From a bacterium (GTDB lineage: Bacteria > Chloroflexota > Anaerolineae > Epilineales > Epilineaceae): DNA of 64,000 bases. This document shows positions 1,537-34,647 of this stretch, piece by piece. Position 1 is the stretch's first letter; the number at the start of each line of letters is the position of its first letter. The notes beneath the pieces were generated by a model that was not told where the DNA came from, did no database searches, and was given only the letters and a program-made list of their open reading frames with translations. The translations under genes were made by a program, and so were the position numbers. Where the stretch lies: contig QEVT01000002.1 in assembly GCA_003576755.1 (NCBI GenBank), positions 346 through 64,345 of the forward strand. Reading direction: 5' to 3'.

Positions 1537-4500
1537 GTGGCGCGAATGGGCTCCACGCACATCGCCGCGCGCAAGGCGCGGGCGAAAGAGGCGCAAGCAG
1601 GGCACACATCGGCGCGGCGACCGAAGCGGGGGTTGTCGCCGTCGCTTGGCGCCCTGCAACTCCAGCGCACGCTTGGCAACCAGGCGGTCGGGCACCTGAT
1701 CCAGGCGAAGCTCGTCGTCCATGCCCCGCATGATGCCTATGAGCAGGAAGCCGACCGTGTCGCCGACTCCGTGGTCCGTATGCCGGGCGACTCCACCGCC
1801 GGGCCCGGAACCGCCTTCACATCCGTCTCCGCTCCGGCGACGACGCCCCTTGCGCGCACCGCCGTGCATCACACGCCGAAATTCCACTTCAGCAACCTCC
1901 CCGTTCAACGCTTGGCCAAAGACGAGGATGCCGTCGCGGTGCAGACGGCGTCGATCCAACGCCAGGAGACTGAGGGCGAGGAGGACGAGGCTGTCCAGGC
2001 GATGCCGTTACAGCGGCCGGCGGAGGAAGCGGACGAGGAGGTCGCGCGGACGGCGGCGATCCAACGCCAAGCCGAAGGGGACGAAGACGCGCCGGTGCAG
2101 GCGCGTCGGGCAGGCGGCACGCGGCCGCGCGTGACGCCGGATGTCGAAGCGCGAATCCGTTCGGCTGCGGGTCAGGGTCAAGCACTTGCCGCACCTCTCC
2201 GGGCGTTTTTCGAGTCGCGCCTCGGCCGCGATTTCGGTCAGGTCCGGGTCCACACCGGGGCGGGCGCGGACATGCTCAACCAGTCGCTCGCGGCGCAGGC
2301 CTTCACGCAGGGTGAGAACATCCACTTCGCCGCGGGCAAGTACGTGCCTGAGTCCGAGTCGGGCCTGCACCTCCTGGCCCACGAGCTGACCCACGTTGTG
2401 CAGCAAGGCAAGGCGGCGCCGCTGAACGGCCGTGCTCGCTCGACCGAGACGACTTCCGGCTTCGAAGACGCATCCGAAGTCGCCAGCACAGCGGGCGATG
2501 GGGGAGGGGGCCCGGAGGCACGCGTGGCCCAGGTCCCCGAAGCAGCGCCGGCATTCGACCAGTCGTCCGCGCCGATCGATCCGGGGGCGACCGTCGTGAC
2601 CCCGACCCCGCCCGATGCCGGCCGCGATCGTGCGATGCGCGGGGCACGGTCCGGGGGGGAGGGCTCAGAACAGCGCAGCCGCTCGGCGGCCGAGGCGCGC
2701 GGCGGTGAGACGAAGGAAGCGCGAGGCGCAGGCGGCGCAGGCGCGGCGGTCTTGCGGGATGCGGCTGCCAAGGCCGCGGATGTTGCGGGAGACGCCGTCA
2801 AACGCGGCGAGCCAAGTGGTGAGACGGCGGCCGCCGAAGTGATGGATCTGGGCAGCGCTGGCAGCTCGGACCGGGCGTTCGCCGCGTTCACGCAGTCCAG
2901 CGCATCGCAGGTGGCGGCCACGCTCCCGGGGCTCGGCGCGGCACTGGGCGAGCAGGTCGCAGGCGAGCAGCAGGCGGTGGCCGAGACGACGCCCGCGCTG
3001 CGGGCGCAGACCCCCGGTGTGGCCGAGCCGCCGGACCTACCCTCCGTCCCGCCGCTCGACGCCGGGTCGGTTGACATCGGCGATGCCCGGACCGAGCCGA
3101 ATGCCCCGGCGCCACGGGTCAAGCCGCATCAGAACGCGGCGCCGCCGCCGGCGAACACAAAGGAGGCGCGCGTCGTCGACAACCAATCGGAATCGGGGTT
3201 CTTCGATTGGCTCAAGAACCGGTTCCTCGCGCTGCTCCAGAGCATCGTCACCTCGGATCCAGGGCTCAACACCAGCGCCGGCGAGACGCCGCGCGTGGAA
3301 ACCACCGGCGATGCCGATCCGGAACGCGCGGCGCGGCAGCGGGACGAGGCCGAACAGCAGGTCGCGGCCAAGCAAGCGGCGACGACGACGAGCATCGCGA
3401 CCAACCCGGGCCAGCGGCGGATCCAGCCGGTTGCCGTCGACGAAGCCGAGAGCATCGCGCTCGCGCAGCCGCCCGAACCGATCGGGGAGGTCGAGAGCAA
3501 CGCCGATGTGGCGCGCTATGCCGCGATGGAGGTCCCGGAGAACATCCGGGCCGCCGCGGACGCGAAGCTGGCCCCGCTGCTGGACAAGAGCCTGGCCGGC
3601 ACGCGCGCCGACGTTACGGCCGCGGGCGAGGCGCGCGATCTCGACAAGCAGGCGGCGATCGACACGGCCCAGGCGGACACTGCCGAGCTCAACCGGTCGG
3701 CCGAGGCGCGGCAGGACGAGATCGTGTCGCAGTCGCGCGACGATGTCCGCAAAAAGCAGGAGCAAGGCATCGAGAAGAGCCGCGCGCGGCTGGCGGAGTT
3801 CCAGGACGAAGCGGGCAAGGAGCATTCCGGGACGATCACGTCGGTCGAGGACCGAATCGCCAAGGACGCCGACGCGGCGGATGCGCACCTCGCCGGCGCC
3901 GAGGTCAAGGCCGATGCCGAGCGATTGAAAGGCGAGAAGGAGGCCGCGGACAAGAAGCGCGCCTTCGAGAACGAGAGCAAAGAGGAGAGCTGGTGGTCGC
4001 GCGCGGCCTCGGCGGTCAAGAGTGCGTTCAAGGCGGTGACAAAGGCTATCGACGCGGTCTTCGACCAGGTGCGCAAGGCCGTCAAGTCGATTATCGATGC
4101 CGCCAAGCAGTTCGCGCTGGACCTGATCGAGGCAGGTCGCAAGTGGATCGTCGACAAGCTGGAGTCGTTCCGTACGTGGCTCAAGGAGAAGACGAACCAA
4201 TGGCTCAAGGACTTCCCGGCGCTGTTGGCGGTCGTCAACAAGGGCATCGACCGGGTGGTGAACGTCGCCGTCGCGACGGTCAACGCGGTGGCGGACGACC
4301 TCAAGGCCGGCGTGAAGGCGCTGGCGGAAAAGCTGAACGGCGCGCTGGATGGGATCCTTAAGAAGTTCCAGGGCGTGCTCAAGAGCGCCGTGGCCATCGC
4401 CGGCGCCCTCGCCACGGGCGACTTCGCTGAAGCGGCCAAGATGATGTTCGTCGCCGCATGCGACGTCCTGGGGCTGCCGACTGAGAAGTTCCTCGGCATC

Positions 4501-17764: not shown

Positions 17765-17776
17765 GAGCGAATCACC

Positions 17777-18073: not shown

Positions 18074-18075
18074 CG

Positions 18076-18495
18076 ATGCGCTTCAACGTCGAGCCGGCGA
18101 AGGCGTTCCTGGGTGTCGGGTGGGCGTTCCCGCCCGGCCTCGAAGCCGATGGCACCATCGCCGAGGCGGCCTACGACGAGGACATCCGTCAGGCCATCCG
18201 GATCATCATGTTCACCAATCGCGGCGAGCGCGTGATGCGGCCGGACTTCGGCGCGGGCCTCAAGGACTTCGTCTTCGAGCCGGTCAACACGTCGACCCTT
18301 GCCGCGGTGCAGACACGGGTGCAGGACGCGCTGACCATCTGGGAACCGCGGATCGACGTCCTGTCGGTGCAGGTCGCGACGGACCCGGCGGAGCGCAACA
18401 CGCTGAACATCCATGTCACCTACCGCGTGCGGGTCACCAACACCGTAGAGAACCTGGTCTATCCGTTCTATCTCGAAGAAGGAAGGCCGGCGTGA
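18076..18495 (+). CDS. Baseplate wedge protein gpW/gp25-like (Afp9)
   Basis: GVGWAFPP...IRQAIRIIMFTNRGERVMRPDFGAGLKDFVFEP...ALTIWEPRI is the GPW_gp25 lysozyme-like fold signature. Confidence 0.9.
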   Translation: MRFNVEPAKAFLGVGWAFPPGLEADGTIAEAAYDEDIRQAIRIIMFTNRGERVMRPDFGAGLKDFVFEPVNTSTLAAVQTRVQDALTIWEPRIDVLSVQVATDPAERNTLNIHVTYRVRVTNTVENLVYPFYLEEGRPA

Positions 18496-21400
18496 CGACG
18501 ACCCGGATCAAGCCGGTTCTGGACGCGCGCGCCGGGCTGGCGCTGCGCGATGCCCTCCTGGCACGCCGCGCCGGCTATCTTCCCGGCTGGCACCCTGAAG
18601 GCACGCGGGTGGATGCGGGGCTCATCCAGGTGGCGGCCAGCTACGCGCAGACCATCCTGCGCCGCCTGGACCGCAGCCTGGACCGCAACGAGCTGGCCTT
18701 TCTGGACCTTCTCGGCATCCAGCTCATCCCCGCGCGGGCCGCCAGGGCACCGATCGTCTTCGAGCTTGCCGCCGGGGCCCAGGACAGCCGCGTGCCGGCG
18801 GGCACGCGCGTCGCCGCGCCGCCTCCCCCCGGCGGCACCGATCAGCTCGTGTTCGAGACCGAGCGCGCCGTCGGCCTGGCCGGAGCCAGGCTGGCCCAGG
18901 TCTTCAGCCTCGTGCCGGGCCGCGACGGCTACATCGACCACACGCCGGCGCTCGCCGAGAAGAAGCCCATGCGCCTGTTCGACCCGCGCGCGCTGCGCAC
19001 GACGCCGCACGCGATCTATCTGGCGCACGACACGCTCTTGGCGCTTTCGGGCAACACGACGGTGGAGGTGCTCTTCGACCTCCTGGAGGGTGCGAGCGAG
19101 TCGATCGACCTGACGTGGGAGTACTGGGATGGCAAGGTCTGGCGCGAGTTCAAGTCGGCCCGCCGCGAGTGCGACGAGGTCGAGGCGCGGCGGCTAGATG
19201 GGACGGAGGGACTGCGGCACGGCGGCAAGGTGCGCCTCGAGGCGGACTTCGCCAAGTCCGAGAAGACCACGGTCAACGGCATCGAGGCCTTCTGGGTGCG
19301 CGGGCGCCTGGCGGACGACCGGACGCTGGCGCCGGGCGCGGTGGCGATCCTGCCCGAGGTGGACCAGATCAAGCTGCAGAATGAGACGGGACACGGGCTG
19401 TCGTTGGGCCATCTCGGCGTGACTTACAACGTCGATGGCGCCGACAACGCTGGCGTCTTCCAGTTGCAGGGCGTTTCCTTGACGGTTTCTATCACCGACG
19501 CCGATGGAGCGCCTCAACCAGGAGTTCCTGTACGTATTGACGAGGGTAACGGACCCAGACCTGGTACGACCGATGCTACCGGCTCGCTCACGTTTACAGT
19601 GGCCATTCCTACGAACCCGGCACAGATGTCCATGGCGGTCACGATCGGCGCAACAGTCCCCAACACCTTGGACGTCCCCATCGACCACGAGTACCCCTTG
19701 ACCATTGACCTCTCCCACAAGCACTTGAGATCGATTCCACACACAACGTTGCTGGATGGTGTCCGTCTCGACAAGGCCTTCGCTGGCCCGGACAAGATCG
19801 ATCTTACCGGCACGTTACAGCCTTTCGGCCCGCAAGTGGTCGCGGGGGGCGCCTTCTACTTCACATGTGAAGAGGTGTTCTCGAAGCCGGGTGCCAGTTT
19901 TAAGGTCGGTGTGGCAATCGCCGCACCGGTTCAACCCGTGGCCAAGTTCCAGGTCTTGCCGGACAAGGTAGAACACGAGCTGGCATGGGAGTATTACGAT
20001 GGCCGGGATTGGAAGTGCGTCCGGTCTTCCAAGGGGGACAGCGGCGCAGGCAACACCGCTGCGGAACGGTTCACGAAGTCGGGCATCATCGAGGGGTTCG
20101 TCGTCCATCCCGACATGGCCAAGGTGAAGGTCAACGGCGACGAGCAGCTGTGGATGCGCGTGCGCGTGGTCAACGGCAGCTTCGGTATCATCCAACAAGT
20201 GCAGGCTGCTCCACCAGTCAAGGCCTTCTTCCCCCAGCCCCCCGCCCTCTCCGACTTCCGCATCGGCTACGTGTGGAAGCCGGCTCCGGAGTTCCCGAAG
20301 CATGTGATCACGCACAACGACTTCCAGTACGTCGACGAGACCGAGACGGCCAAGTGGCCGGGCAAGGCGCTGAAGCCGTTCACGCCGGTGGACGATATCA
20401 CGGCGGCGCTCTACCTCGGGTTCGACCGCGCCCTCCCCGTCGATGCGCTGAGCCTGTATATCGACGCCGAAGAGCAGTCGGCGGCGGGCGGCGGTCCGGC
20501 GCAGGTGTGGGAGTACTGGGACGGCGGCGGCTGGCAGGCACTGGCGGGGGTCGAGGACGAGACGCGCCGGCTGCGGTCGCCGGGCATGCTGGCGCTGATC
20601 GGTCCGGCGGATGGCGAAGCGCTGGCGCGGTTCGGCACACCGCTCCACTGGGTGCGCGCGCGGCTCAAGGAGGACGAGCCGCCCGGCGTGCCGGTGATCA
20701 ACGCCATCCACATGAACGCGGTGTGGGCGTCGCAGAACCAAACCATCGTCAACGAGCCGCTCGGCGCGAGCACCGGCCAGACCAACCAGGGGTTCGCGTT
20801 TCGCCAGGTTCCGGTGTTGGAGGGCCAGGTCATCGAAGTGCGGGAGCTTGCGGGCCGCCGCGCCGACGTCGAATGGCGGATCGTGGCGCTGGACGTCCTC
20901 AACGGCGACGAGCGCGCCGTGCGCGATATCGAAGACATGCTGGCCGCGGACGGTACGCCGCTGGAGTTCGAGTACGGTACGCTGCGGTTCAAGCGCGATC
21001 GCCAGAAGCGGGTCACCGAGGTATGGGTGCGCTGGGAGGAGCCGGCGCGCGGGCACATGCGGTTCTCGGCGTCGGGCGATCGCCACTACACCGTCGACCG
21101 GGCGCGTGGGCGCGCCGCGTTCGGCGACGGCCACAGGGGCAGGGTACCACCGGTCGGCGCGCCCATCCTGGCGCGCCGCTATCGGACCGGCGGCGGGGTC
21201 GCCGGCAACGCCGCCGCCGAAGCCATTAACCAGGTGCTGGGGGCGGTCGGCGCCGTCGAGAAGGTCTTCAACCCGCGGCCGGCGCAGGGCGGGGCAGACG
21301 GCGAGCTGGCCGAGACGGTGCTGCTGCGCGGCCCGCAGACCGTCCGCCATCGCGGCCGTGCCGTGGCGGGTCCGGACTTCGCGACGATGGCGCGCGAGGC

Positions 21401-21938
21401 GGCGTCGAGCGTCGCCGTCGCCCGGGCGATCCCCGGCCGCGATCCGTCCGGGCGCCGGGCGCCGGGCTGGGTGACCGTGGTGATCATCCCGCAGAGCGCC
21501 GAATCCCGGCCATGGCCGTCCTTCGGCCTGCGCGAGGCTGTGCGCCGCTACATCGCCCGTCATGCCGCCGCCGACCTGGTGGCAGCCGACCGCATTTATG
21601 TCACCGGTCCCGTCTACGTCCCGGTCGACATCGATGCCGAGATAGCCGTCCGCGATGCCTCGACGGCCGGCGCCGTCGAACAGGCGGCGCGGGGCGCCAT
21701 CGCGGCGTTCCTGCACCCGCTGAGCGGCGGCGCCGACGGCCGCGGCTGGCAGCCGGGCCGCGCGGTCTACCTCTCGGATGTGGCGGCGGTGCTGGAGCGC
21801 GTGTCCGGGGTGGACTACGCCGTGAGCGTGGCGCTGCTGCGCGACGGCGCCGTGCAGGGACTTTCGGCGCGGGTGCCGGAAGATGGGACCGTCGTGGCCG
21901 GCGACATCCGGCTCAAGCTCCGATCGAGCGAGGCGTGA
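18492..21938 (+). CDS. Large baseplate wedge protein, gpJ/gp6-like (Afp11-like), 1,148 aa
   Basis: GTG at 18492 overlaps the gp25 TGA. The N-terminal pattern is LRDALLARRAGYLPGWHPEG...ELAFLDLLGIQLIPARAARAPIVFEL. The C-terminus is baseplate-J-like (VTVVIIPQS...YVTGPVYVPVDI). Confidence 0.8.
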   Translation: MTTTRIKPVLDARAGLALRDALLARRAGYLPGWHPEGTRVDAGLIQVAASYAQTILRRLDRSLDRNELAFLDLLGIQLIPARAARAPIVFELAAGAQDSRVPAGTRVAAPPPPGGTDQLVFETERAVGLAGARLAQVFSLVPGRDGYIDHTPALAEKKPMRLFDPRALRTTPHAIYLAHDTLLALSGNTTVEVLFDLLEGASESIDLTWEYWDGKVWREFKSARRECDEVEARRLDGTEGLRHGGKVRLEADFAKSEKTTVNGIEAFWVRGRLADDRTLAPGAVAILPEVDQIKLQNETGHGLSLGHLGVTYNVDGADNAGVFQLQGVSLTVSITDADGAPQPGVPVRIDEGNGPRPGTTDATGSLTFTVAIPTNPAQMSMAVTIGATVPNTLDVPIDHEYPLTIDLSHKHLRSIPHTTLLDGVRLDKAFAGPDKIDLTGTLQPFGPQVVAGGAFYFTCEEVFSKPGASFKVGVAIAAPVQPVAKFQVLPDKVEHELAWEYYDGRDWKCVRSSKGDSGAGNTAAERFTKSGIIEGFVVHPDMAKVKVNGDEQLWMRVRVVNGSFGIIQQVQAAPPVKAFFPQPPALSDFRIGYVWKPAPEFPKHVITHNDFQYVDETETAKWPGKALKPFTPVDDITAALYLGFDRALPVDALSLYIDAEEQSAAGGGPAQVWEYWDGGGWQALAGVEDETRRLRSPGMLALIGPADGEALARFGTPLHWVRARLKEDEPPGVPVINAIHMNAVWASQNQTIVNEPLGASTGQTNQGFAFRQVPVLEGQVIEVRELAGRRADVEWRIVALDVLNGDERAVRDIEDMLAADGTPLEFEYGTLRFKRDRQKRVTEVWVRWEEPARGHMRFSASGDRHYTVDRARGRAAFGDGHRGRVPPVGAPILARRYRTGGGVAGNAAAEAINQVLGAVGAVEKVFNPRPAQGGADGELAETVLLRGPQTVRHRGRAVAGPDFATMAREAASSVAVARAIPGRDPSGRRAPGWVTVVIIPQSAESRPWPSFGLREAVRRYIARHAAADLVAADRIYVTGPVYVPVDIDAEIAVRDASTAGAVEQAARGAIAAFLHPLSGGADGRGWQPGRAVYLSDVAAVLERVSGVDYAVSVALLRDGAVQGLSARVPEDGTVVAGDIRLKLRSSEA

Positions 21939-21940
21939 TC

Positions 21941-24166
21941 ATGGCGCTGCCGATGCCGAACCTCGACGATCGCCGCTGGGCCGACCTGGTCGAGGAAGGC
22001 CGCGCCCTCTTGCCGGTCTACGCGCCGGACTGGACCGACCACAACGACTCGGACCCCGGCATCACGTTCATCGAGCTCTTGGCCTGGATCGCCGAGATGG
22101 ACGTGTATCGGGTCAACCTCATCCCGGAGCGCCATCGGCGGAAGTTCCTGGCGCTGGCGGGGATCCGCCTACGGCCGCCCGCACCGGCACGCACGGTGCT
22201 GGGTCTTGGCTTCGACGCGACGAAGGTCGGATCGCAGCCGTTCCGGCTGCCCGCCGGCACGGAGTTCGCCGGCACCGACGTCTTCGGCGTCCGAACGCTG
22301 TTTCGCGCCAAGCATGCCGTGACGGTCGCTCCGGCGAGGCTCGAGTCGATCCAGCGCGAGATCGAGGGGCGGTTCCACGACGTGACGGGGCTTCCCGCCG
22401 CCGGCGAGCCGCTGCGGCCCTTCGGCGATGACCCCCGCCCGGGCGCCGCGCTCTACCTTGGCTTCGACGTCGCGTTCCCGCGGGACGAACCGGTGAGCCT
22501 CTACTTCCTTGGCGCGGATGCGGCTGTGAGCGCGACCGAACGCCGATCTCTGATCCGTGAGTGGTCGGCGAACCACGAGGGGTGTGACGAGCTGTCCGGC
22601 ACGATGGGGTGTGTTCGTGTTCCCGCCGGCAACGCGACGGCGTCGGCGCTGCCGTGCGCCGATACACAGATCGTCCTGCCTGGGGCTATGGCGTCGCGCC
22701 CGGCCACGACGTCGTCGCGGCGCATCGACAAGGCTGCGGCACTGAGGCACCACTCGGTGCGCACGGTATGGGAGATTGCGGTGGCGCCGGGCGTGTGGCG
22801 GACGCTGGATCCCGACCGGGGCGAAGTGCGCGACGGCACGCGGGCGTTCACGCTCGACGGGCGGGTCGTCCTCCGGGCGCCGGCGGCCATGATCGGTCAG
22901 GCGATGGGGTCGGTGCGGGCCAATCGCTACTACGTACGCTGCCGGCTGGCCGCGGGGCAGTACGACGCGGCGCCGGCGATCCACCACGTCATCGTGAACG
23001 GTGTGCGCGTGGAACAGGCGGTCGAGAGCGGGGGGGAAGGCATCGCGGCCGGCGGGGCCATCGGCACCGGCGAGCCGTTCCAGCGCATCGCGCTGCCCGA
23101 GAAGCCGGTGATCGCCTCCAGCGTGCGGCTGTTCACGGAGCCTGGGCCCGATGGGACGTGGGCGCTGTGGGAGCGGCGCGATGACCTCGACGCGTCGTCG
23201 CCGACGGACCGACACTTCGTGCTGGATGCTACCGCTGGCGAGATCACGGTCGGCGATGGGGCCCATGGGTCGACCGTGGGGGAAGGCAGCGAGATTCAGG
23301 TGGACTACCGTGTGACCCGCGCCGAAGCCGGCAACGTGCCCGCCGGGACCATCCGGGCGCTGGCCGGCAAGGACAGGTTCCGGCATTGGGAGGCGCTTGT
23401 CGCGGCGGTCGAGGACCGGGTCGCGGAAATGGAGCGATCGACGCCCGGCCTGTCGGTCGGTGCCGCGGACGCCTTGTCATGGATCGACGCGCTCGTGGTG
23501 TCGCAGCCGTTTCCGGCCGCCGAAGGCGCGGCTGCCGAGACGCTGGCCCATGCTGAGGGCCGCGCAATCGAACGGATGGAGGAACGAACCCGGGCGGTGA
23601 CGCTGGAGGACTTCGAGCAGGTCGCGCTTCACACGCCCGGCGTCCGGCTGGCACGGGCGCATGCGTGCGCCAACGTACATCCGCGCCTGCCTTGCTACCG
23701 TGCGCCGGGCATCGTCACGGTGGTCGTGATCCCCCATCTGCCCCAGGCGCGGCCGATGCCGTCGGCCGAGCTGCGGCGCACGGTCGCGTCCTACCTGGCC
23801 CGTCGGCGTCTGATCGGCTCGCGCATCGAGGTGGTCGGCCCGACGTATCACGTCGTCACGGTGCGCGCCAAGGTGCAGTTGCTTTCTGGGGTCGGCCCTG
23901 GCGGCGCACGTGAGCGGATCGCGGCAAGTCTGGAGCGGTTCTTCCACCCGCTGAAAGGCGGCACGGACCAAGAGGGCTGGCCTCTCGGTCGGGATGTCTA
24001 CCGTTCGGAGGTGTTGCAGGTGATCGACGAGACGGCGGGCGTGGACTTCGTCGTGGACCTCGAGCTGGTGGACGAGGATGGGCTGGCGTCGTGTGCCAAC
24101 CTCTGCATCGGGCCGTTCGGCCTGGTGGCGTCCGGCCGGCACGCCATCGAAGTGAGGCAGCCATGA
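21941..24166 (+). CDS. Second gpJ-like 'putative baseplate assembly protein' (Afp12/gp7-position), 741 aa
   Basis: ATG lies 2 nt after the upstream stop. PNLDDRRWADLVEEGRALLPVYAPDWTDHNDSDPGITFIELLAWIAEMDVYRVN is the conserved N-terminus of this baseplate family. The C-terminus is IVTVVVIPHLP...IEVVGPTYHVVTV. Confidence 0.8.
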   Translation: MALPMPNLDDRRWADLVEEGRALLPVYAPDWTDHNDSDPGITFIELLAWIAEMDVYRVNLIPERHRRKFLALAGIRLRPPAPARTVLGLGFDATKVGSQPFRLPAGTEFAGTDVFGVRTLFRAKHAVTVAPARLESIQREIEGRFHDVTGLPAAGEPLRPFGDDPRPGAALYLGFDVAFPRDEPVSLYFLGADAAVSATERRSLIREWSANHEGCDELSGTMGCVRVPAGNATASALPCADTQIVLPGAMASRPATTSSRRIDKAAALRHHSVRTVWEIAVAPGVWRTLDPDRGEVRDGTRAFTLDGRVVLRAPAAMIGQAMGSVRANRYYVRCRLAAGQYDAAPAIHHVIVNGVRVEQAVESGGEGIAAGGAIGTGEPFQRIALPEKPVIASSVRLFTEPGPDGTWALWERRDDLDASSPTDRHFVLDATAGEITVGDGAHGSTVGEGSEIQVDYRVTRAEAGNVPAGTIRALAGKDRFRHWEALVAAVEDRVAEMERSTPGLSVGAADALSWIDALVVSQPFPAAEGAAAETLAHAEGRAIERMEERTRAVTLEDFEQVALHTPGVRLARAHACANVHPRLPCYRAPGIVTVVVIPHLPQARPMPSAELRRTVASYLARRRLIGSRIEVVGPTYHVVTVRAKVQLLSGVGPGGARERIAASLERFFHPLKGGTDQEGWPLGRDVYRSEVLQVIDETAGVDFVVDLELVDEDGLASCANLCIGPFGLVASGRHAIEVRQP

Positions 24167-25128
24167 ACGCGTTCGATCGCCGTGCGCTCGAACGCGTGCG
24201 GCACCTCCCGGGCGAACGCCTGCGCGGGCGCGACTTCCGGGCACAGGCGGCCATCGACGATCAGCTGCGTTGGTGGCACAACCGCGCGCTGCATCAGGCC
24301 TATGGCGTGGCGACGGGCATGGAGGTGCGGGATTCGGCGACGATGAAGCGCCCGATGGTAGGTGCGGCGGCTGTCGAGATCAGCCCCGGCGTCGCTTATG
24401 ACGCCTATGGGCGCGAGATCATCAGCCCGTTCCCCGTTCGCCGCGCCGTGCCGAAGATCGGCGACTGGACCCTGGTCGTGTCGTACCGAATGCCCGTCCG
24501 GGTGGAACCGCCGCCGCCGCCGTCGCCGGCACCTCAGTTGCCGGCGCCCTGTCCTTCGGCGTGCGACATCGGCGGCGTTACGACGGCGGTATTCACCTGG
24601 GTGCCGCCTCCAGCGGCGCCCAGTCGAGATGCCGTATCGCTCGTGACGTTCCGAGCGAATGGGGAAGTCAAGGTCCACACGACGTTTACCCATGCGATGG
24701 CGCGACCGCTGGTCGCCAGCGGCGAAACGCGGCTGGGGTTTACGCCCTGGATCGTGTGGAAGGTCGCCGAAGTGGGATCGCTGGGATTGGAGACCGAAGT
24801 CGATACCTCCGCGGCGTTGTTCGCGCCCGAGCATGGGGTGCCCTGTTACTTCGCGTGGTTGAACGAGGTGATCGAGGTCGGACAGGGCAGTGACAAGCTT
24901 CCGCAGCCGCGCGGGTTTTTCGGTCATGTCGCTCCCGGTGCCGATCATCGGCGATTCACGTTTCGCGTGCTCATGCGGAACGTCTCCCTCACTCACGGCG
25001 AGGCTGCGAATCGATTTGGCGACACCGGGGCTTGGTTGGCGTTCGGCGAACATCTTCAGGTGTGCTGGCTCGGCGTTCAGTGTCTGACGTGCCTGAAGGA
25101 CCTGCAAGCAGAAGACTCGGGAGAGTGA
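24163..25128 (+). CDS. Fibre/baseplate-periphery candidate, paralogue 1 of a four-member family (321 aa)
   Basis: ATGA overlap with the upstream gene. It shares the N-terminal module (GERLRGRDFRAQAAIDDQLRWWHNRALHQAYGVATGMEV...GVAYDAYGREIIS) with 25132, 28524 and 29433. Confidence 0.6.
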   Translation: MNAFDRRALERVRHLPGERLRGRDFRAQAAIDDQLRWWHNRALHQAYGVATGMEVRDSATMKRPMVGAAAVEISPGVAYDAYGREIISPFPVRRAVPKIGDWTLVVSYRMPVRVEPPPPPSPAPQLPAPCPSACDIGGVTTAVFTWVPPPAAPSRDAVSLVTFRANGEVKVHTTFTHAMARPLVASGETRLGFTPWIVWKVAEVGSLGLETEVDTSAALFAPEHGVPCYFAWLNEVIEVGQGSDKLPQPRGFFGHVAPGADHRRFTFRVLMRNVSLTHGEAANRFGDTGAWLAFGEHLQVCWLGVQCLTCLKDLQAEDSGE

Positions 25129-25131
25129 CGC

Positions 25132-26217
25132 ATGTTGACCACGGGCTCCAGCGACTTCCAGGCTCACGAGCGACCGGCGTTCTTCAACGGTCAACGCCTG
25201 CTCGCGTCCGATCTTCAAGCCGTCGAGATCGCCAACCGCGAGATGCGCTGGCTGCACAACCGCTCACTGCACCAGGTGGGCATCGGCAGCGGGCTGGCGA
25301 TCGTCGGCAACAAGGGCGATCGCGTGGTCACCGTCATGGCGGGCTACGCGATCGACGATCTTGGGCGCGAGATCGTGCTAACGGAAGCGGTCCAGCTTGC
25401 GCTCCCGCCGGTCGCCGGCGCCGGAAAGGGTACGCCCGCCATCTACGATCTCACCATCAACTACGCCGATGATGACGACCTGAACGAGGCGGAAACGCGG
25501 GCGACGATCTGCGCGCAGTCCGAGCGTGGCGCCGTGCGATTGCGCGAGGCTCCGGCACTCTGCTGGGTATTGGTCAAGACCGAGCACGAAATCTCCCCCC
25601 TCGTCAAGTCCGGTCGCCGTATCCTCTTGGGCCGCGTGCGCATCCTGAACTGCGAGCTCTTCAGCCTTGAGATCGACCGCCGCCGAAACGCCAGGCCGTC
25701 GAAGCAGCCGTACATCGCGTGCGGCGTCGCCAATCCGGTGGCGTGGACGCCTTGGACGACAAAGAACGACAAAGGAAGCGACATCATTATCGGCTTATGC
25801 GCCGAGATCGACACCTCCACGGCGCGTTTTGGAGCCGTGCCGTGCTACACCGTTCGGATCGACGGCAAGCGGCCGTTGGATTGGCGGGTGAACGCATACG
25901 TGCACTCTGCCTTTGACGGGCCGGTAACCGTTTTCGATCCCCGCTCCGATGGCTTTACGGTTGGAGTGTTGCTGATGGAGATCCCGCCGCCCAGACCTGC
26001 TCAGCCTATAGAAGTCCCGCCCGGCGGTGGGCTCAACGTGGTTCGCGAAGTGGCCATGCCGGCAGCGTCCGCGGCGACACCGGCAGCTACTGGAGCTGCC
26101 GTCGAAGGGGTCTCTATGCCGAGCGCCTCGGTCGCTGCACCGAGCGCTTCGATCACTGATGCACTCCGGCCCGTTTTTTCGCCCTGGTCCGTCGTATGGA
26201 TGGGCGTCGAGGGATGA
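25132..26217 (+). CDS. Fibre/baseplate-periphery candidate, paralogue 2 (361 aa)
   Basis: FFNGQRLLASDLQAVEIANREMRWLHNRSLHQVGIGSGLAIV...GYAIDDLGREIVL has the same N-terminal module. The start lies 3 nt after the upstream stop. Confidence 0.6.
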   Translation: MLTTGSSDFQAHERPAFFNGQRLLASDLQAVEIANREMRWLHNRSLHQVGIGSGLAIVGNKGDRVVTVMAGYAIDDLGREIVLTEAVQLALPPVAGAGKGTPAIYDLTINYADDDDLNEAETRATICAQSERGAVRLREAPALCWVLVKTEHEISPLVKSGRRILLGRVRILNCELFSLEIDRRRNARPSKQPYIACGVANPVAWTPWTTKNDKGSDIIIGLCAEIDTSTARFGAVPCYTVRIDGKRPLDWRVNAYVHSAFDGPVTVFDPRSDGFTVGVLLMEIPPPRPAQPIEVPPGGGLNVVREVAMPAASAATPAATGAAVEGVSMPSASVAAPSASITDALRPVFSPWSVVWMGVEG

Positions 26218-28475
26218 CGATGCACGGCGCGCCACGCTTCCGGTACCTCAATCGCGAGAACCGTTGGGCCGGGTTCACGTTGAGGGGCCTCACCCTGGAC
26301 GAGGACGGCGCCCTGCGCCTGGCGCATCTGCCGGGGTTGGAGGGCGACGCGCCGGCGGGCCTCGCCGCGCTGCCCCGTCCGACGGAGCCCGGCGGCATCG
26401 CGGTAGGCCCGGACGGTGCGGCGTACTTCGCCGATGTCGTGCGGCATCAGGTGTGGCGCGTCGACCCGTGCGACGGGAGCCGGGCGCCGCTGGCCTGCAT
26501 CGGTGGTCCGGGCGATGTGCCGGGGACGGTGTACGAGCCGCGGGGTCTGGCCTACCACCCGTCCCGCCGCGCGCTGGTTGTGGTCGACAGCCTGAACCAC
26601 CGCTTGCAGCTCTTCGAGCTCGCGACGCTCCAGCTCGTCGACGTGTGGGGCGGTTGGGGCGATGGCGACGGGCAGTTCCGGAAGCCGTGGTCTGTAGCAG
26701 TCGATCGCGAGGGCAGCGTCTACGTGACGGAGCACACGACGGCGCGGGTGCAGAAGTTCGATGCGAAAGGACGCGTCGATGTCGGGTTCTGGGAAAAGGT
26801 TCGAAGCGCGATCAAAGAGAAGGAGCTTGCGTGGCAGCGGCCGGTCGCCGTCGCGACCAGCGGCGGCCGGCGCAAGGGCAGGGTCTACGTCCTCGACGGC
26901 GCCGCGGGCTGGGTCCATGTCTTCTTTGCGACGGGTGTCCATGAACGCAGTCTCAAGGTCGAAACAGACCAGGGGTCGGGTGTCGCACATACTTCGATCG
27001 AACCGATCGAGCCCATGGGTCTCGCCGCTGACGCCGAAGGCATCTACGTCGGCGACAATGCCGGCCGGCGCATCCTGCGCTTCCTGGCCGACGGCACGTT
27101 CGTCGGGGCAGCCCTAGGATACGACGGGCCGGTGGCGGCGTTGGGGATCGACGGGCAGGGTGGCCTGATCGTCCAGCCCGGCGCGGGCATGGCGCCCGTG
27201 ACGCTGACCGTGCGCGGCGGCCATGCCCGCTACGGATATGCGTGGGGGGGACCGTTCCGCAACGACAGCTACCGCGCCGAGCAGTGGCACTGGATTACGT
27301 CGGAGCTGGAGGCGAAGCCCGGCGCGCATGTACAGCTATTCGTCCTCTGCACGCGGCCCGAAGAACCGGCACCGGTGGGCGATCCCCCGTGGCGTGGCCG
27401 GGTTCAAGACTTCGACAATGCGCTGAAGGCCGGGCTGTCGCATGGCCCCGGGCTGTCCGCAACCGGACAAGCGGTGCCTTCGCCCTGGTTGGGACTACCG
27501 ATCGATGTGACGGAATGCCTGGTGCCCGGCGCGCCGGGAGGCGAGTTGGTGTGGGTGGGCGTGGCCATGACCGGTGACGGTCTGGAGAGCGCGGCGCTCA
27601 AGCAGGTCCGGCTGGAGTTCGATCATCTGACGTGGCTGCCCCACTTGCCCGCGGTGTATCAGGGCGACGATGCGTCGCGCCGCTTCCTGGCGCGCTTCCT
27701 GACGATGTTCGAGAGCCTGTTTAGCGAAGCGGAGCGGAGCATCGATCGGTTGCCGCAGTACTTCGACGCCGCGGCGGCGCCGAAGTCCGGGCTGGCGTGG
27801 TTGGGCAGTTGGCTCGGGCTGGAGGTCCACGAGGACTGGTCCGAGCCGACCAAACGGCGTGCGATCGCGGAAGCGATCGAGATGCACGGCCTGCGGGGAA
27901 CGGTCGAGGGGCTCCGGCGCGCCGTTCGGCTTTACACGGGCGCAGACGTGCGGATCCAGGAACCCTACCTGACGACCCAGTGGTGGTCGCTGGCGCCGCC
28001 GGCCGGCGACGCGGCGTCGTCCCTGGAGTCCGAAGGCTCGGTGCTCGGCCTCACCACGATGCTGGCACCGGCGGCGCCTCAGGGCGCAATCGTCGGGTCC
28101 ACGGCGACGCTGGACGGGTCGCACCTCATCTCAGGCGATCAGGTCGGCGAGCCGCTGTTTACCGACGTCGCCCATCAGTTCAGCGTACTGCTTTATCGCG
28201 GGGCAGGCTACAGCGATGCCGTCCGCGATGCAGTGCGGGCCGTGATCGATCGCGAGCAGCCGGCGCACACCACCTACCAGCTTTGTGTCATCGAGCCGCG
28301 CATGCGGATCGGTTGGCAGGCCCGGGTCGGCATCGACACCGTGGTGGCGGGCCCGCCGGGCGTGTCGCCCTTGGGCGATGCCGATGCCGCCGCGCCCGAA
28401 ATCACCCTCGGGGGCGATCCCCCGGGCGCAATCGGCGACCGGAGCCGTCTGGGCGTGACGACGCGCCTGCGCTAG
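26214..28475 (+). CDS. NHL-repeat beta-propeller fused to a P2 gpI-like phage tail protein domain (TIGR02242-type)
   Basis: NHL blades are VVDSLNHRLQLFE, GQFRKPWSVAVDREGSVYVTEHTTARVQKFD and IYVGDNAGRRILRF. The C-terminal LPAVYQGDDASRRFLARFLTMFESLF...LAWLGSWLGLEV...HGLRGTVEGLRRAVRLYTG is the gpI-family signature. An ATGA overlap at 26214 is the likely start. Confidence 0.75.
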   Translation: MTMHGAPRFRYLNRENRWAGFTLRGLTLDEDGALRLAHLPGLEGDAPAGLAALPRPTEPGGIAVGPDGAAYFADVVRHQVWRVDPCDGSRAPLACIGGPGDVPGTVYEPRGLAYHPSRRALVVVDSLNHRLQLFELATLQLVDVWGGWGDGDGQFRKPWSVAVDREGSVYVTEHTTARVQKFDAKGRVDVGFWEKVRSAIKEKELAWQRPVAVATSGGRRKGRVYVLDGAAGWVHVFFATGVHERSLKVETDQGSGVAHTSIEPIEPMGLAADAEGIYVGDNAGRRILRFLADGTFVGAALGYDGPVAALGIDGQGGLIVQPGAGMAPVTLTVRGGHARYGYAWGGPFRNDSYRAEQWHWITSELEAKPGAHVQLFVLCTRPEEPAPVGDPPWRGRVQDFDNALKAGLSHGPGLSATGQAVPSPWLGLPIDVTECLVPGAPGGELVWVGVAMTGDGLESAALKQVRLEFDHLTWLPHLPAVYQGDDASRRFLARFLTMFESLFSEAERSIDRLPQYFDAAAAPKSGLAWLGSWLGLEVHEDWSEPTKRRAIAEAIEMHGLRGTVEGLRRAVRLYTGADVRIQEPYLTTQWWSLAPPAGDAASSLESEGSVLGLTTMLAPAAPQGAIVGSTATLDGSHLISGDQVGEPLFTDVAHQFSVLLYRGAGYSDAVRDAVRAVIDREQPAHTTYQLCVIEPRMRIGWQARVGIDTVVAGPPGVSPLGDADAAAPEITLGGDPPGAIGDRSRLGVTTRLR

Positions 28476-28523
28476 AGAAAGAACATCCGTGCGCATCCAT
28501 CCAGCGTATCTTCAGGAGGAACG

Positions 28524-29411
28524 ATGAACCGCTCGCAACGAGCCAGATCGAGGGGTACCGACATCACGTCGCCGCTCCGCAACAATTACTTCCACGGCAA
28601 GATGATGGATGCGTACCACTTCCAGCTGGAGACGCACTATCACAACCACTTGCGCTCGATGCTGAACAGACTGGTGATCGGCCGGGGCGTGGTCTGCGGG
28701 CTCAACGTCACGCATCGGCAGGACTGCGACGGCTGCGAAGAGCCCGAGACTCCCGTGATCGACATTGCCCATGGCGTGGCCATCGATGCCTGGGGGCGGC
28801 CCATCGTGGTGCCGTCGGACGTCAAGTGCCTGCCCATTCCGAAGGACAGGATCATCGAGGCTCTGGAGCTGACCGAGGAGTATGGGGGCGCGGGCACCGC
28901 CAGCCGGCACGTCGGCCATGGCCCTCCGGGCAAGGACGACGACGACGATGAGAAGGGGCCCAACGGTTGGGTGCAGGTGCTCATCGGCTACCACGAGTGC
29001 CAGGTCGACCCGGTGCCGGTGTTGGCGGGGGACTGCCACGGCGGGCAGTCATGCAATGCCGGCACCATCCGCGAGTGGTACAAGTTCGACTTCCGTGCCG
29101 GCCGATCGCAGCGCATCGATCTGCACTGCAACATCCCGGATGTCGTCACACGCGGCCGGGTGAACTACGACAAGATCGTCGACTGGGTCACGATCCCGGA
29201 CGAGAACGAGCTTACGGGCTGCCGCGAACGTCCCGAAGCGTCGTGGCTGCCTTTGGCCGACGTGCACTTCGATCTGGATGAATCCGGCGACGCGCCGCGC
29301 TTCGTCATCGATCGTGTCGACATCTACCGCCGGCGGGTGGCGTACTCCAACCGGCTGCTCTTCGAGATGCTCTTGGACCTCATCCAGGCCCGGCGTGGCC
29401 CCAACCGATGA
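28524..29411 (+). CDS. Fibre/baseplate-periphery candidate, paralogue 3 (295 aa)
   Basis: RBS AGGAGG. YFHGKMMDAYHFQLETHYHNHLRSMLNRLVIGRGVVCGLNV...GVAIDAWGRPIVV has the same N-terminal module as the other three. Confidence 0.6.
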   Translation: MNRSQRARSRGTDITSPLRNNYFHGKMMDAYHFQLETHYHNHLRSMLNRLVIGRGVVCGLNVTHRQDCDGCEEPETPVIDIAHGVAIDAWGRPIVVPSDVKCLPIPKDRIIEALELTEEYGGAGTASRHVGHGPPGKDDDDDEKGPNGWVQVLIGYHECQVDPVPVLAGDCHGGQSCNAGTIREWYKFDFRAGRSQRIDLHCNIPDVVTRGRVNYDKIVDWVTIPDENELTGCRERPEASWLPLADVHFDLDESGDAPRFVIDRVDIYRRRVAYSNRLLFEMLLDLIQARRGPNR

Positions 29412-29432
29412 CCACTCAGCACGAGGTGAGAC

Positions 29433-30695
29433 ATGCAACGCACCACTGATTGCGGCTGCGGCTGCGGCCAAGGCCACGCCGGCGTGATGGAGCGGCCGCG
29501 CTACTTCCCGCGCCAGCTCATCACGCCCGACGACATGAACCTTGAGCAGGCGTACTTCCGCGACAAGATGCGGCGGCACAACAAGTACCTCCATGGCTGG
29601 GGCGTCGTGTGCGGGGCGCAGGTTTGTGCGGCCACAATGAAGGGAAAGGACGCCTCCGGCAAAGAGGTCGACGTCCCCAAGCCCTGGACCGTCGTGGTCC
29701 AGCCGGGCTACGTCCTCGGCCCCGGCGGCGACGAGATCTACATCGATTGCCCGCGCGAGGTCGACGTTCGCACGTCAGGGCTGGCCGTGAAGTCCGGCGA
29801 GCCCGCGGGTGCGTGGGAGGATCCGTGGTGCACGCCGGTCCGCGTCCCGAACAACGAAGCCGGCACGGTCTACATCGGGGTGCGCTACAAGGAGTTCAAG
29901 ACGCGCAAGGTCCCGGTGTACCCCGCCGGGTGCGGCTGCGACGACACGCAATGCGAGGAGTCGCGCTGGTGCGACGGCTACGAGATCTGCATCCTGGACT
30001 CGTGCCCGGACTCCCACAAAGGCCCGCCGCCGCTGAGCATGGTCGCCAATGCCAAGACGGCTGAGACGCTCGTTGGCAACCCATCTCCCCCGTGCCCTGG
30101 CTGCAGCGACGACTGCGTGGTCCTGGCCAAGGTCTCGTTCAACGCCGAGGGGACATTCGGCGATAACGGAATCGACCACTGCGCCTGCCGGCGGAACGTG
30201 CTGTCGTTCGGGCATGTGTGGTGGGGGTGTGGGGAGGCAGTGACGGATGGTACGAACGGTTCGGGCGGCGTTGAGCCTCCCACATCTGGGGAGTGTGAGA
30301 TCGTCGTGCATCGGATTGTTGCGCAGTACAAATATACCAGCGGGGCGCCGCAAATGGTACGAGAGATTACGCGACATGGCGGCACAGCCGATAGCGCGAT
30401 CAAGTGGGGCCCAGTGCCACACGACATCGCGAAGTACATCGAAGTGACTCTTGAAGGGGATGGATTCCTTTGCGGTAACATTGCAAAAGAGACTCAAGTA
30501 TCTGTTGGCCAAGGACTGAGGGTCGAAAGTTCTTGGGTCGAAAGAGTAGAGTTGACGAACAGTCGACAGCGCCTTATCTTCCAACTCGTTCGCGACGAGG
30601 CTCCGGTGTTCACTCCGGGCTTTCGATCACTCACTATCATCAACGCCGTGGGTAAGTCATGGCGACTCGATAATATCATCGAGGTGACAGAATAG
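29433..30695 (+). CDS. Fibre/baseplate-periphery candidate, paralogue 4 (420 aa), Cys-rich with a low-GC C-terminal domain
   Basis: YFPRQLITPDDMNLEQAYFRDKMRRHNKYLHGWGVVCGAQV...GYVLGPGGDEIYI. There are more than 20 Cys, including CGCGCG at the N-terminus and GCGCDDTQCEESRWCDGYEIC. The last ~150 codons are visibly AT-richer. Confidence 0.6.
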   Translation: MQRTTDCGCGCGQGHAGVMERPRYFPRQLITPDDMNLEQAYFRDKMRRHNKYLHGWGVVCGAQVCAATMKGKDASGKEVDVPKPWTVVVQPGYVLGPGGDEIYIDCPREVDVRTSGLAVKSGEPAGAWEDPWCTPVRVPNNEAGTVYIGVRYKEFKTRKVPVYPAGCGCDDTQCEESRWCDGYEICILDSCPDSHKGPPPLSMVANAKTAETLVGNPSPPCPGCSDDCVVLAKVSFNAEGTFGDNGIDHCACRRNVLSFGHVWWGCGEAVTDGTNGSGGVEPPTSGECEIVVHRIVAQYKYTSGAPQMVREITRHGGTADSAIKWGPVPHDIAKYIEVTLEGDGFLCGNIAKETQVSVGQGLRVESSWVERVELTNSRQRLIFQLVRDEAPVFTPGFRSLTIINAVGKSWRLDNIIEVTE

Positions 30696-30719
30696 TCGGC
30701 GCGAAAGGGGTCGTGAGCC

Positions 30720-31601
30720 GTGGTCAACGCATTCGCCGTGATGCTCATGCAGCCAGACCTCCCGGATGCCAAGACGATCCAGGACAACCTCGACTGGTTT
30801 GTCAGTGCAGTCGTGACGGTGCTTGCCTTCTTGCTGCCCTATCTCATTCGCCATTACGGCCTCATCGCCTCGAAGGGCCGGGCCGATCGGCTGGGCCGGA
30901 TCGTCGCCCTCGCCGACCAGGCCGTGGCGATGGCCGAGGAGCGGGCGCGGAAGGATGACCTGCCGCTGGGACCGGACCGTACGGAGCGCCTGAGCAAGTT
31001 GGCGACGGCGGTCGAGTTCGTGAAGAAGGAGCTGCAGAAGTCGGGCATCGAGGTCGATCCGGAAGAGGCCAAGAACTACGTCATCGCCGCCTACGGGTCG
31101 AAAGTCGGCAGCGTCCTGCCAGTCGGCGCCATCGCCGCAGCGACGGCCGCCGTGGCCGACAGGCTCCAGAGCCTGGATCGGCGCGCGGACGTCGCGCTGC
31201 CGCCCGGCGTGGATCGCGCGACCCATCTGATCGGCCTCGCCGCCAACGCACTGCAGGTGGAGCTGGCCAAGTCGGGCATCAGCATCAGCGCCGATGACGC
31301 CGCGAGCTGGCTCAGGGCGGAGGTCTTCCGACGGCTGGAGGGCGACGATGCCGCCCTTCCCGCGAGCGACCAGCTGGAGCGGCTGGCGACCGAAGCGTAT
31401 GCGTTCGTCGACCGGCTCAGGGCGGGCGGAAAGCTCGCGCTACAGGCGTCCGGACCCGCGGAAGAGACCGACTTGCGCATCGCGGCCGCCTGGCTGCTCA
31501 GCGAAGTTAGCGAACGCGGGCTGCCGGTGTCGCTGGACCAGGTGGAGGGCGCGATCCTCGCGGCGCGGGCCGCGCGGGAGGGAGGCTCACTGAGGCGATA
31601 A
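30720..31601 (+). CDS. Membrane protein with one N-terminal TM helix and three LL-H-holin-like repeats (putative holin/lysis or release factor)
   Basis: The TM helix is LDWFVSAVVTVLAFLLPYLI. Three repeats follow with the pattern '...A..V...L.KSGI.V..DE.....I.A.V', for example ATAVEFVKKELQKSGIEVDPEEAKNYVIAAY, ANALQVELAKSGISISADDAASWLRAEVF and AAWLLSEVSERGLPVSLDQVEGAILAARA. The family call is from memory of the Holin_LLH pattern and is not verified. Confidence 0.5.
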   Translation: MVNAFAVMLMQPDLPDAKTIQDNLDWFVSAVVTVLAFLLPYLIRHYGLIASKGRADRLGRIVALADQAVAMAEERARKDDLPLGPDRTERLSKLATAVEFVKKELQKSGIEVDPEEAKNYVIAAYGSKVGSVLPVGAIAAATAAVADRLQSLDRRADVALPPGVDRATHLIGLAANALQVELAKSGISISADDAASWLRAEVFRRLEGDDAALPASDQLERLATEAYAFVDRLRAGGKLALQASGPAEETDLRIAAAWLLSEVSERGLPVSLDQVEGAILAARAAREGGSLRR

Positions 31602-34589: not shown

Positions 34590-34647
34590 GATGGTATCGA
34601 GTGTGATGGACTAAACGGTCAGTCTCGACGGAGGTGCAGGTGCTTCA

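Follow-up and report, generated by a model that had tools for sequence, protein, structure and literature searches.

We analysed a 64,000-nt stretch of DNA (hereafter, the window) from contig QEVT01000002.1 of assembly GCA_003576755.1, a bacterium of the Epilineaceae (Chloroflexota; Anaerolineae), and focused on a cluster of genes for a contractile injection system (CIS). Third-position GC frame analysis and the listing of open reading frames (ORFs) place the cluster at 1537-31601 as a single array of 22 genes on the + strand, the strand of every feature given below unless we state another. Intergenic gaps are short, and 4-nt ATGA or GTGA overlaps join neighbouring genes at 8525, 13958, 14119, 18492, 21935, 24163 and 26214, with one more outside the locus at 47111. 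All eight core subunit types of Chen 2019 are encoded: cap, sheath, tube, LysM initiator, spike, gp25, Baseplate_J and AAA+ ATPase. Beyond this core we found a PAAR tip, a Tail_P2_I adaptor, four fibre-like paralogues and two DUF4157 (eCIS_core) proteins. Judging part identities by homology, we are nearly certain that the locus is a complete and apparently intact CIS of the Afp/PVC type.

The window is GC-rich (~67%). Its sheath is identical to RIL12707.1 and its holin-like protein to RIL12721.1, both from the metagenome-assembled genome (MAG) 'Chloroflexi bacterium CFX6', and the locus sequence was found again in many sequencing runs. We scanned about 60 ORFs, spread over the window, against Pfam, and also used the profile libraries NCBIfam and PHROG, with Rfam for RNA elements and PADLOC for defence genes. 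The contig is 86.8 kb long, and the 10 kb upstream of the window were recovered from other assemblies of the same organism. For comparison, we surveyed 80 related genomic loci and four others from metagenome assemblies and a plasmid (handles such as L004 denote individual loci). A first-pass annotation, made from the sequence alone, had described a complete tail-only contractile injection locus; this description holds, with 22 co-oriented genes and every core type recognised by profile. It had also predicted that the products beginning at 10114 and 6306 would match DUF4255 and CIS-ATPase profiles. The former matches Pvc16_N, with a 9gts cap chain as its best structural match, and the latter is an AAA+ ATPase found at the same position in related CIS loci. 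The seven 4-nt overlaps that it listed are real, and we add an eighth at 21935. Its gene labels were essentially right, including a gpE/gpE' chaperone pair; the exception is the last gene (30720-31601), labelled gpI, which is holin-like (Phage_holin_6_1), the gpI-like gene being 26214-28475, fused to an NHL propeller.

The cap, or tail terminator, belongs to the Afp16/Pvc16 family (10114-10995) and matches Pfam Pvc16_N (DUF4255) with E = 2e-27 and 96.6 bits against a cutoff of 27. Its best match in the PDB is 9gts_0A, a Pvc16_N chain (E = 3.5e-15), and Pvc16 and Afp16 chains were matched too. At its C-terminus lies a CarboxypepD_reg (transthyretin-like) beta-sandwich (Pfam E = 4e-11), a fusion shared by relatives including L004 and L005, which would decorate the distal end of the particle. 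The contractile sheath (11005-13152; Pfam Phage_sheath_1 and Phage_sheath_1C) has 715 aa from a TTG start, or 703 aa in the NCBI model, which begins at 11041, against roughly 510-550 aa in systems of subtype IId. Its best PDB match is Streptomyces Cis2 (8BKY/8BL4; E = 4e-104, 353 bits), ahead of Cis2 of Halogeometricum borinquense (9EZM; E = 1e-79, 272 bits); Anabaena, PVC, AlgoCIS and Afp sheaths follow at about 1e-41 to 1e-49. Sheaths of metagenome CIS reach 59-61% identity with it over its full length. The inner tube (13168-13593) matches Pfam Phage_T4_gp19 (E = 9e-48) and is the only gp19-type tube gene of the locus, as the first-pass annotation had it, and the LysM initiator carries the tube fold too. 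Relatives of the same clade also have one tube gene; IId-type loci mostly have two or more.

The gene after the tube (13599-13961) encodes a tail assembly chaperone, an analogue of gpE or lambda G (phrog_508, E = 1.7e-7), which is kept in related loci. It is followed by a 54-aa ORF (13958-14122; Pfam DUF6760, E = 6e-17) in the -1 frame of the chaperone, an analogue of gpE' or the T extension whose score against Phage_P2_GpE (16.9 bits, cutoff 23) is sub-threshold. The chaperone gene ends in GTG GGG GGG TGA, and the DUF6760 ORF begins at the overlapping GTGA. Read from the sequence, a run of seven G at 13951-13957 directly precedes the stop codon of the chaperone gene; it is a candidate site of -1 slippage. 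Both ORFs were detected in 53 related loci. DUF6760 occupies the same -1 frame in every one of them, and 47 of the 53 have a run of at least five G no more than 18 nt from the chaperone stop, compared with 1.3% of background windows; at least three of the remaining six have a G-run slightly further upstream. By script, 16 loci have no DUF6760 start codon near the junction. At least 8 of these calls are reliable; in several others, homology to DUF6760 maps as starting well away from the junction. The frame relation and the G-run are kept across both CIS clades described below. Lambda G/GT and P2 E/E+E' are made by programmed frameshifting with the same pattern, and these data suggest that the chaperone junction of our locus is likewise a programmed -1 frameshift site that would fuse the products of 13599-13961 and 13958-14122. 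The conserved frame and G-run thereby lend functional support to the gpE/gpE' reading of the pair. A full-text search on CIS, tail assembly chaperone and frameshift returned no paper centred on frameshifting of a CIS chaperone.

The ORF at the tape-measure position (14119-15027; 302 aa, Ala/Arg/Pro-rich), named for its place in the gene order, had no profile match in Pfam, PHROG or NCBIfam. Relatives carry an ORF of 276-316 aa at this position, with direct matches in L004 and L010.

The hub, spike and tip are encoded next. The tube initiator, or baseplate hub, with a LysM domain (Afp7/Cis7; 15091-15774) matches Pfam CIS_tube (E = 2e-34) and LysM (E = 3e-7). The spike, a fused VgrG in Afp and PVC, is here divided between a gp27/gpD-like hub half (Cis8a-like; 15776-16996) and a gp5/gpV-like half (Cis8b-like; 17120-17764), a division that the first-pass annotation had recognised. 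The hub half aligns with positions 144-363 of the NCBIfam VgrG_rel profile (E = 4e-17) and, at E = 0.004, with the N-terminal region of 9gtr_q, a fused spike; PHROG baseplate hub and tail-protein families matched it as well. In the gp5-like half, the matched part is the OB domain (Pfam Phage_base_V, E = 1e-18). Both ORFs share a frame and are separated by a 123-nt spacer (16997-17119). This spacer holds three stops in that frame, together with short direct repeats: CGCGATGNGGCGAT occurs three times and a unit of 18 nt twice. Relatives keep the split, usually with a 4-nt overlap of the two ORFs. Hence the split is ancestral, and we rejected pseudogene decay as its cause because the ORFs of the relatives are intact and overlap. 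The PAAR spike tip (17777-18073) matches Pfam PAAR_motif with E = 1e-20.

The baseplate wedges comprise a gp25/gpW-like protein (Afp9; 18076-18495; Pfam GPW_gp25, E = 4e-27) and two Baseplate_J paralogues that are 30% identical. Cis11a (18492-21938; 1148 aa; Pfam Baseplate_J, E = 2e-15) has an N-terminal extension of ~840 aa that includes an Ig-like domain (MG4/Big_1 matches, residues 328-387). Its residues 844-1115 match residues 333-613 of 9gtp_1K, the C-terminal half only (E = 1e-53). We take 9gtp_1K to be Streptomyces Cis11, a J-like baseplate protein, and the entries 9GTP, 9GTR and 9GTS to represent the same Streptomyces system. Cis11b (21935-24166; 743 aa; Pfam Baseplate_J, E = 2e-12) matches this 652-aa chain in three stretches from residue 1 on (E = 2e-50). 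Entry 9GTP contains 12 chains of the 9gtp_1K protein, and we infer that Cis11a and Cis11b may supply six copies each.

The gpI/Cis12-like adaptor (26214-28475) is fused to an N-terminal NHL propeller (Pfam NHL, E = 1e-15; Tail_P2_I, E = 3e-15). In the PDB it matches NHL propellers at E = 1e-30, pyocin Tri2 and, over residues 477-585, the Streptomyces chain 9gtp_E (E = 1e-14). On either side of the adaptor gene lie four fibre-like paralogues (24163-25128, 25132-26217, 28524-29411 and 29433-30695), whose N-termini match NCBIfam CIS13_fam with E = 1e-3 (weak), 9e-5, 5e-21 and 7e-16, respectively. All four share this N-terminal domain of ~90 aa; paralogues 1 and 2 also match each other by BLASTP over residues 5-99 (E = 3e-10). 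The first has a unique C-terminus, and the fourth is Cys-rich, with a Ralstonia homologue at E = 8e-51. A recent catalogue describes the fibres of extracellular CIS (eCIS) as built on a few N-terminal anchor domains, with Tail_P2_I proteins as adaptors and several fibre genes in some operons, and our four paralogues fit this picture. The last gene of the array (30720-31601) begins 24 nt after the last fibre gene. It encodes a holin-like protein (Pfam Phage_holin_6_1, 34.6 bits against a cutoff of 24.9; PHROG holin, E = 6e-8) with one transmembrane helix (residues 24-42) and a tail of ~170 aa.

At its 5' end, the array encodes two putative cargo proteins and an ATPase. DUF4157 is a published marker of cargo of eCIS, CIS and archaeal type VI secretion systems (T6SS), where it usually lies N-terminal to a toxin, often followed by a very long linker. 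Cargo 1 (1537-6246; 1569 aa) carries the domain at its N-terminus (Pfam eCIS_core/DUF4157, E = 7e-28) with an HExxH motif (HELTH, residue 282), followed by a long linker/coiled-coil, a hydrophobic helical region (~1141-1220) and a C-terminal module (~1382-1534). An exhaustive search of 1.8e9 representative proteins with this module returned 24 homologues, as weak-to-moderate matches; a word-indexed homologue search returned nothing. Protein length varies widely among the homologues, in which the module is C-terminal; eCIS_core was also present in five of the 20 scanned. The module has the conserved motif G-x-(H/D)RRHI...NGK-V...NLWAG..EN (window 5680-6140). Its AlphaFold2 (AF2) model (pLDDT 82, pTM 0.75) has no fold match in the PDB at E <= 1, and Pfam gave only a sub-threshold HEPN match at the C-terminus. 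We dropped an HNH-like nuclease reading of the RRH...NLWxG..EN motif as unsupported. The module is a candidate for an uncharacterised CIS toxin domain. We note that L001-L003, the three of 22 assemblies shown, all end within the gene for cargo 1 and so encode truncated products of ~1290-1300 aa, which hints at strain variation or at a repeat in the 3' part of the gene.

Cargo 2 (8525-9958; 477 aa) combines eCIS_core (Pfam E = 5e-34; HExxH at residue 192) with PG_binding_1 (E = 1e-12) and CHAP (E = 1e-7), and is by its domain content a predicted peptidoglycan-binding CHAP hydrolase; candidate catalytic Cys and His residues were seen in the sequence, without mapping to the CHAP profile. The N-terminal segments of the two cargo proteins are 47-62% identical. 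Between the two genes, at the Afp15/Pvc15 position, lies that of the AAA+ ATPase (6306-8528; Pfam winged-helix domain PF22977, E = 3e-39; AAA, E = 1e-33), which has an N-terminal winged helix; its first P-loop is degenerate and its second AAA domain canonical (Walker A at residue 521, Walker B at 575). Nearly all of the surveyed CIS relatives whose fetched DNA reaches that side have a homologue in this position, including Ralstonia (E = 2e-138). No solved Afp15 or Pvc15 chain was among the PDB matches listed for it, and its putative Afp15-type assignment follows from synteny and family. An anti-phage IetA/IteA ATPase was considered for this gene; the matches are confined to the generic AAA module and score far under the cutoff of NCBIfam, and we rejected that reading because the CIS context explains the gene better.

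We sought to place the locus among described CIS lineages. Chen 2019 (PMC6899500) reported that subtypes IIa, IIb and IIc have a split afp8, that two afp11 copies occur in IIa and IIc, that PAAR is missing only from IIb, and that Afp6, Afp12, Afp13 and Afp14 are divergent or absent in lineage II. Our locus has the IIa/IIc gene content: a split gp27/gp5 spike, two Baseplate_J genes, PAAR and the eight-type core. Like IIa/IIc systems, it has no recognisable Afp14 or Afp6 homologue, and nothing essential differs between them. The gene-content rules do not separate IIa from IIc, and the Afp12/13-like genes favour IIa. A neighbour-joining tree of sheaths from our own survey loci, built without bootstrap support, separated two clades cleanly, with the window outside the IId-type clade. 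The clade of the window contains metagenome loci, Sulfurifustis, Elainella, Pyrinomonadaceae, Thermoanaerobaculaceae, Kofleriaceae and Ralstonia solanacearum. Its sheaths are long (650-715 aa) and its loci have a single tube gene; the spike is usually split, and large J-like genes usually number two. In the IId clade, which holds Streptomyces, further actinomycetes, Anaerolineae and other taxa, sheaths measure 500-560 aa, the chaperone pair lies between two tube genes, the spike is fused (~600 aa) and there is one J-like gene. Two members of the window's clade, L006 (a Blastocatellia MAG) and L007 (a Thermomicrobiales MAG), are exceptions with a fused gp27-gp5 spike and a single J-like gene, which indicates that spike fission or fusion and Cis11 duplication are labile within the clade.

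Among individual systems, an uncharacterised locus of the Ralstonia solanacearum Rs5 megaplasmid (NZ_CP051176.1, 559.5-584.8 kb) keeps the same order from the AAA+ ATPase to the last fibre-like gene, including the split spike, two Cis11 genes, Tail_P2_I flanked by CIS13-like genes, and the chaperone/DUF6760 pair. It differs in its sheath (38.5% identity), in a sigma-54 activator upstream in place of a BTAD regulator, in the C-termini of its cargo and in having no holin-like gene in the ORFs scanned downstream. The Halogeometricum borinquense CIS (IIa; 9EZM; PMC11566945) shares two cis11 genes, a split Cis8 ('Cis8a'), Cis12/13-like proteins and DUF4157 effectors; unlike our locus, it is archaeal and plasmid-borne, with an 8.7-kb spacer in the cluster and a gene for an anchor with six transmembrane helices (6-TM). 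For the sheath, cap, Cis11 and Cis12, the best matches among solved structures come from the CIS of Streptomyces coelicolor and S. venezuelae (IId; 8BKY, 8BL4; PMC10066040, PMC10020575, PMC12237407). Streptomyces-type loci in our survey share the chaperone/DUF6760 pair with its G-run junction, but their spike is fused (~600-640 aa), their sheath is shorter, and they have two genes for the tube and one for Cis11. The function of the Streptomyces system depends on the membrane protein CisA. The Roseiflexus or Chloroflexota-Deinococcota CIS (PMC12998442) belongs to the same phylum and superfamily, but to the IId clade, and is free in the cytoplasm. Afp (Serratia) and PVC (Photorhabdus), of subtype Ia, share the cap, ATPase, sheath, tube, LysM initiator, gp25, Baseplate_J, PAAR and tube-loaded cargo; they differ in that the sheath has three paralogues and the tube two, VgrG is fused, Afp12/13/14 proper are present and the toxins are encoded at the 3' end, and their sheaths are far less similar to that of the window (E about 1e-41 to 1e-48).

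The first-pass annotation had read the gene order as P2 module synteny and the layout as unusual, in a poorly characterised lineage. This synteny amounts to an analogy between modules, and the P2 GpE Pfam match falls below threshold. The layout was published as IIa/IIc in 2019 and is thus already known, both from the Chen 2019 signature and from the same order on the R. solanacearum megaplasmid. 'Poorly characterised' is still fair, as the only characterised IIa system found in the literature searched is archaeal.

Homology gives, with near certainty, the following predicted anatomy. The LysM initiator, the gp27-like protein, the gp5/gpV-like spike and the PAAR tip form the hub, and gp25, Cis11a, Cis11b and the NHL-bearing Tail_P2_I adaptor form the wedges; the four fibre-like proteins have one type of N-terminal anchor domain in common. 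The single tube protein polymerises with the help of the chaperone, probably present in two forms through a -1 frameshift on the run of seven G; the sheath encloses the tube and the DUF4255 cap closes it. As in published related systems, the AAA+ ATPase may aid assembly or cargo loading, and the two DUF4157 proteins may be carried as cargo inside the tube. Particles would be released by lysis of the producer, helped by the holin-like protein, then bind other cells through the fibres and the NHL propeller, contract, and deliver wall-degrading cargo. Taken as a whole, a lineage II CIS of IIa/IIc architecture with an extracellular mode is our best explanation of the locus, at a probability of roughly 0.5. 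Its functional part, lysis-mediated release followed by extracellular antibacterial action, we hold weakly, at slightly under even odds. Three features of the gene content argue for it: (i) four divergent fibre paralogues and an NHL propeller; (ii) a holin-family gene 24 nt after the last fibre gene; and (iii) the lack of a multi-pass membrane anchor in the locus. Regarding the third, no multi-pass membrane protein is encoded within the locus, and the nearest upstream is the product of an Rce1-like gene ~7 kb beyond the window, with unrelated genes between.

Several points weigh against an extracellular mode. Of the lineage II systems characterised so far, none is extracellular: those of Streptomyces and Roseiflexus are cytoplasmic, that of Anabaena is anchored to thylakoids, and that of Halogeometricum is membrane-bound and resembles a T6SS. 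Cis12/Cis13-like proteins are present in the membrane-bound haloarchaeal system too (PMC11566945), so the presence of fibres does not tell the modes apart. When 5.8e9 proteins were searched with a word index, the holin-like protein recovered only itself, and no holin family was matched in the ORFs scanned after the Ralstonia locus; the gene is therefore an accessory and not a feature of the lineage. The tape-measure assignment of 14119-15027 has gene position as its only basis. More generally, the locus sequence is that of a MAG, the site of firing is not decidable from sequence, and the 'e' of eCIS (extracellular) cannot be read from gene content. A bolder reading is speculative and on balance improbable: our locus would be a bacterial member of the split-spike (IIa/IIc) clade that is truly extracellular and antibacterial, with release by a dedicated holin, targeting by four interchangeable fibres plus the NHL propeller, and delivery of a peptidoglycan hydrolase and of a toxin domain without a PDB fold match; as a separate point, programmed frameshifting at the chaperone/DUF6760 junction would extend across lineage II CIS.

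The strongest rival is a cytoplasmic CIS like those of Streptomyces and Roseiflexus, which would fire under stress into the producer's own envelope, with a peptidoglycan hydrolase and a membrane-active cargo reaching its own wall, and so cause regulated cell death. The sheath, cap, Cis11 and Cis12 have CIS entries as their nearest relatives among solved structures (8BKY being S. coelicolor Cis2), the only characterised Chloroflexota CIS (Roseiflexus) is intracellular, and a wall hydrolase cargo and a holin-like gene would each suit self-lysis. The clade of the window, however, is not IId: it has a split spike, two Cis11 and one tube gene. The four fibre-like paralogues and the NHL propeller also contrast with Streptomyces clusters, which have no conventional fibre, and no gene for a CisA-like bitopic or multi-pass membrane adaptor is evident in the locus (CisA was not used as a query). 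We regard this explanation as rather unlikely.

Somewhat less probable again is a membrane-anchored, contact-dependent (T6SS-like) CIS, as in Halogeometricum borinquense, in which a baseplate docked on the cytoplasmic membrane would fire outward, into a neighbouring cell. The IIa signature of Chen 2019 (split spike, two Cis11, PAAR, Cis12/13-like proteins) is consistent with it, and the Halogeometricum system secretes DUF4157 effectors. Peptidoglycan hydrolases are moreover typical effectors of contact-dependent antibacterial systems, such as the Tae and Tge effectors of T6SS. Yet the haloarchaeal mode correlates with an adjacent 6-TM anchor gene, where our locus has no multi-pass membrane protein, and the sheath is nearer to Streptomyces Cis2 (353 bits) than to haloarchaeal Cis2 (272 bits). 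The T6SS families TssJLM, TssA, TssK/F/G and ClpV matched none of the scanned window ORFs, and the locus contains cap and Baseplate_J genes, which T6SS lack.

A phage origin was also weighed. Chen 2019 (PMC6899500) placed cap and ATPase in the core that separates eCIS from prophages, T6SSs and R-type bacteriocins. Neither the ~60 scanned window ORFs nor the called genes of the 10 kb upstream contain a capsid, portal, terminase or integrase family, in line with the earlier statement that head genes are missing. Among P2 tail families, Phage_GPD had no match and Phage_P2_GpE was sub-threshold; only Tail_P2_I and Phage_base_V passed. A remnant prophage tail or R-type tailocin, either a headless, cargo-free device for membrane puncture or a decaying prophage, would account for a module order like that of P2 and pyocin tails, for the holin-family gene and for a GH25 muramidase 11 kb downstream, but is very improbable and largely refuted by the DUF4255 cap, AAA+ ATPase and DUF4157 cargo genes, by phage sheaths at most 36% identical to that of the window (the best over only 60% of its length), by the lack of an integrase, a head gene or a tRNA gene marking an integration site, and by intact ORFs tightly coupled through 4-nt overlaps.

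The 10 kb upstream of the window encode a BTAD regulator, a VWA protein, an Rce1-like protein and a TPR protein. The BTAD-domain regulator (L001 5675-6736) is linked to the CIS cluster, with ParA (178-942 of the window) and cargo 1 intervening; in relatives it lies directly upstream of the ATPase (L004 1-624; L005 5400-6335), and an association of BTAD with eCIS loci was reported earlier (Geller 2021). A perfect sigma-70 consensus (TTGACA, 16 nt, TATAAT) at 1011-1038 on the - strand is found upstream of the ParA-like gene and is oriented divergently to the CIS operon. We observed no enrichment of promoters or terminators in 900-18500, no match to Rfam elements, and no tRNA genes as possible integration sites.

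Downstream, a gene for a TIR-domain protein of CAP12/Pycsar type (31669-32580; Pfam E = 1e-22; PADLOC TIR effector and PDC-S35 matches) begins 67 nt 3' of the holin-like gene on the same strand, and may serve in defence or belong to the locus as an accessory. Two collagen-triple-helix repeat proteins of 625 and 553 aa are encoded on the - strand at 32712-38510, with tandem repeats of 9, 18, 42, 84 and 96 nt, and adjoin a gene with GT1 and GT2 glycosyltransferase domains and TPR repeats. A candidate defence pair occupies 44799-50371: the genes for a CHAT-SIR2 protein and for an nSTAND1 NTPase that bears BNR/sortilin repeats overlap by 4 nt. PADLOC gave ThsA, SIR2 and CHAT matches for the first protein only, and transposase fragments flank the pair at 44264-44719 and 50556-51629. 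A beta-helix protein of >1457 aa (59622-63995; third-position GC 0.97) runs off the window end; its repeats look Thr/Pro-rich from the DNA consensus, and a long overlapping antisense ORF is a by-product. The rest of the window also encodes a C39-like peptidase, a beta-lactamase-fold protein and the GH25 muramidase mentioned above.

The general picture of CIS is unchanged by this locus, as the architecture recurs in cultured bacteria such as Ralstonia solanacearum. It nevertheless provides a well-resolved, intact example of a little-studied split-spike branch, in a phylum where only a IId system (Roseiflexus) has been examined, together with a parts list of two Cis11 paralogues, four fibres with one anchor, an NHL adaptor, a beta-sandwich cap and two DUF4157 cargoes. 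To the assembly biology of CIS, the signal for frameshifting at the chaperone junction adds a small point that can be checked. If the extracellular mode that we favour is true, this would be the first lineage II system, among those cited here, to act outside the cell.

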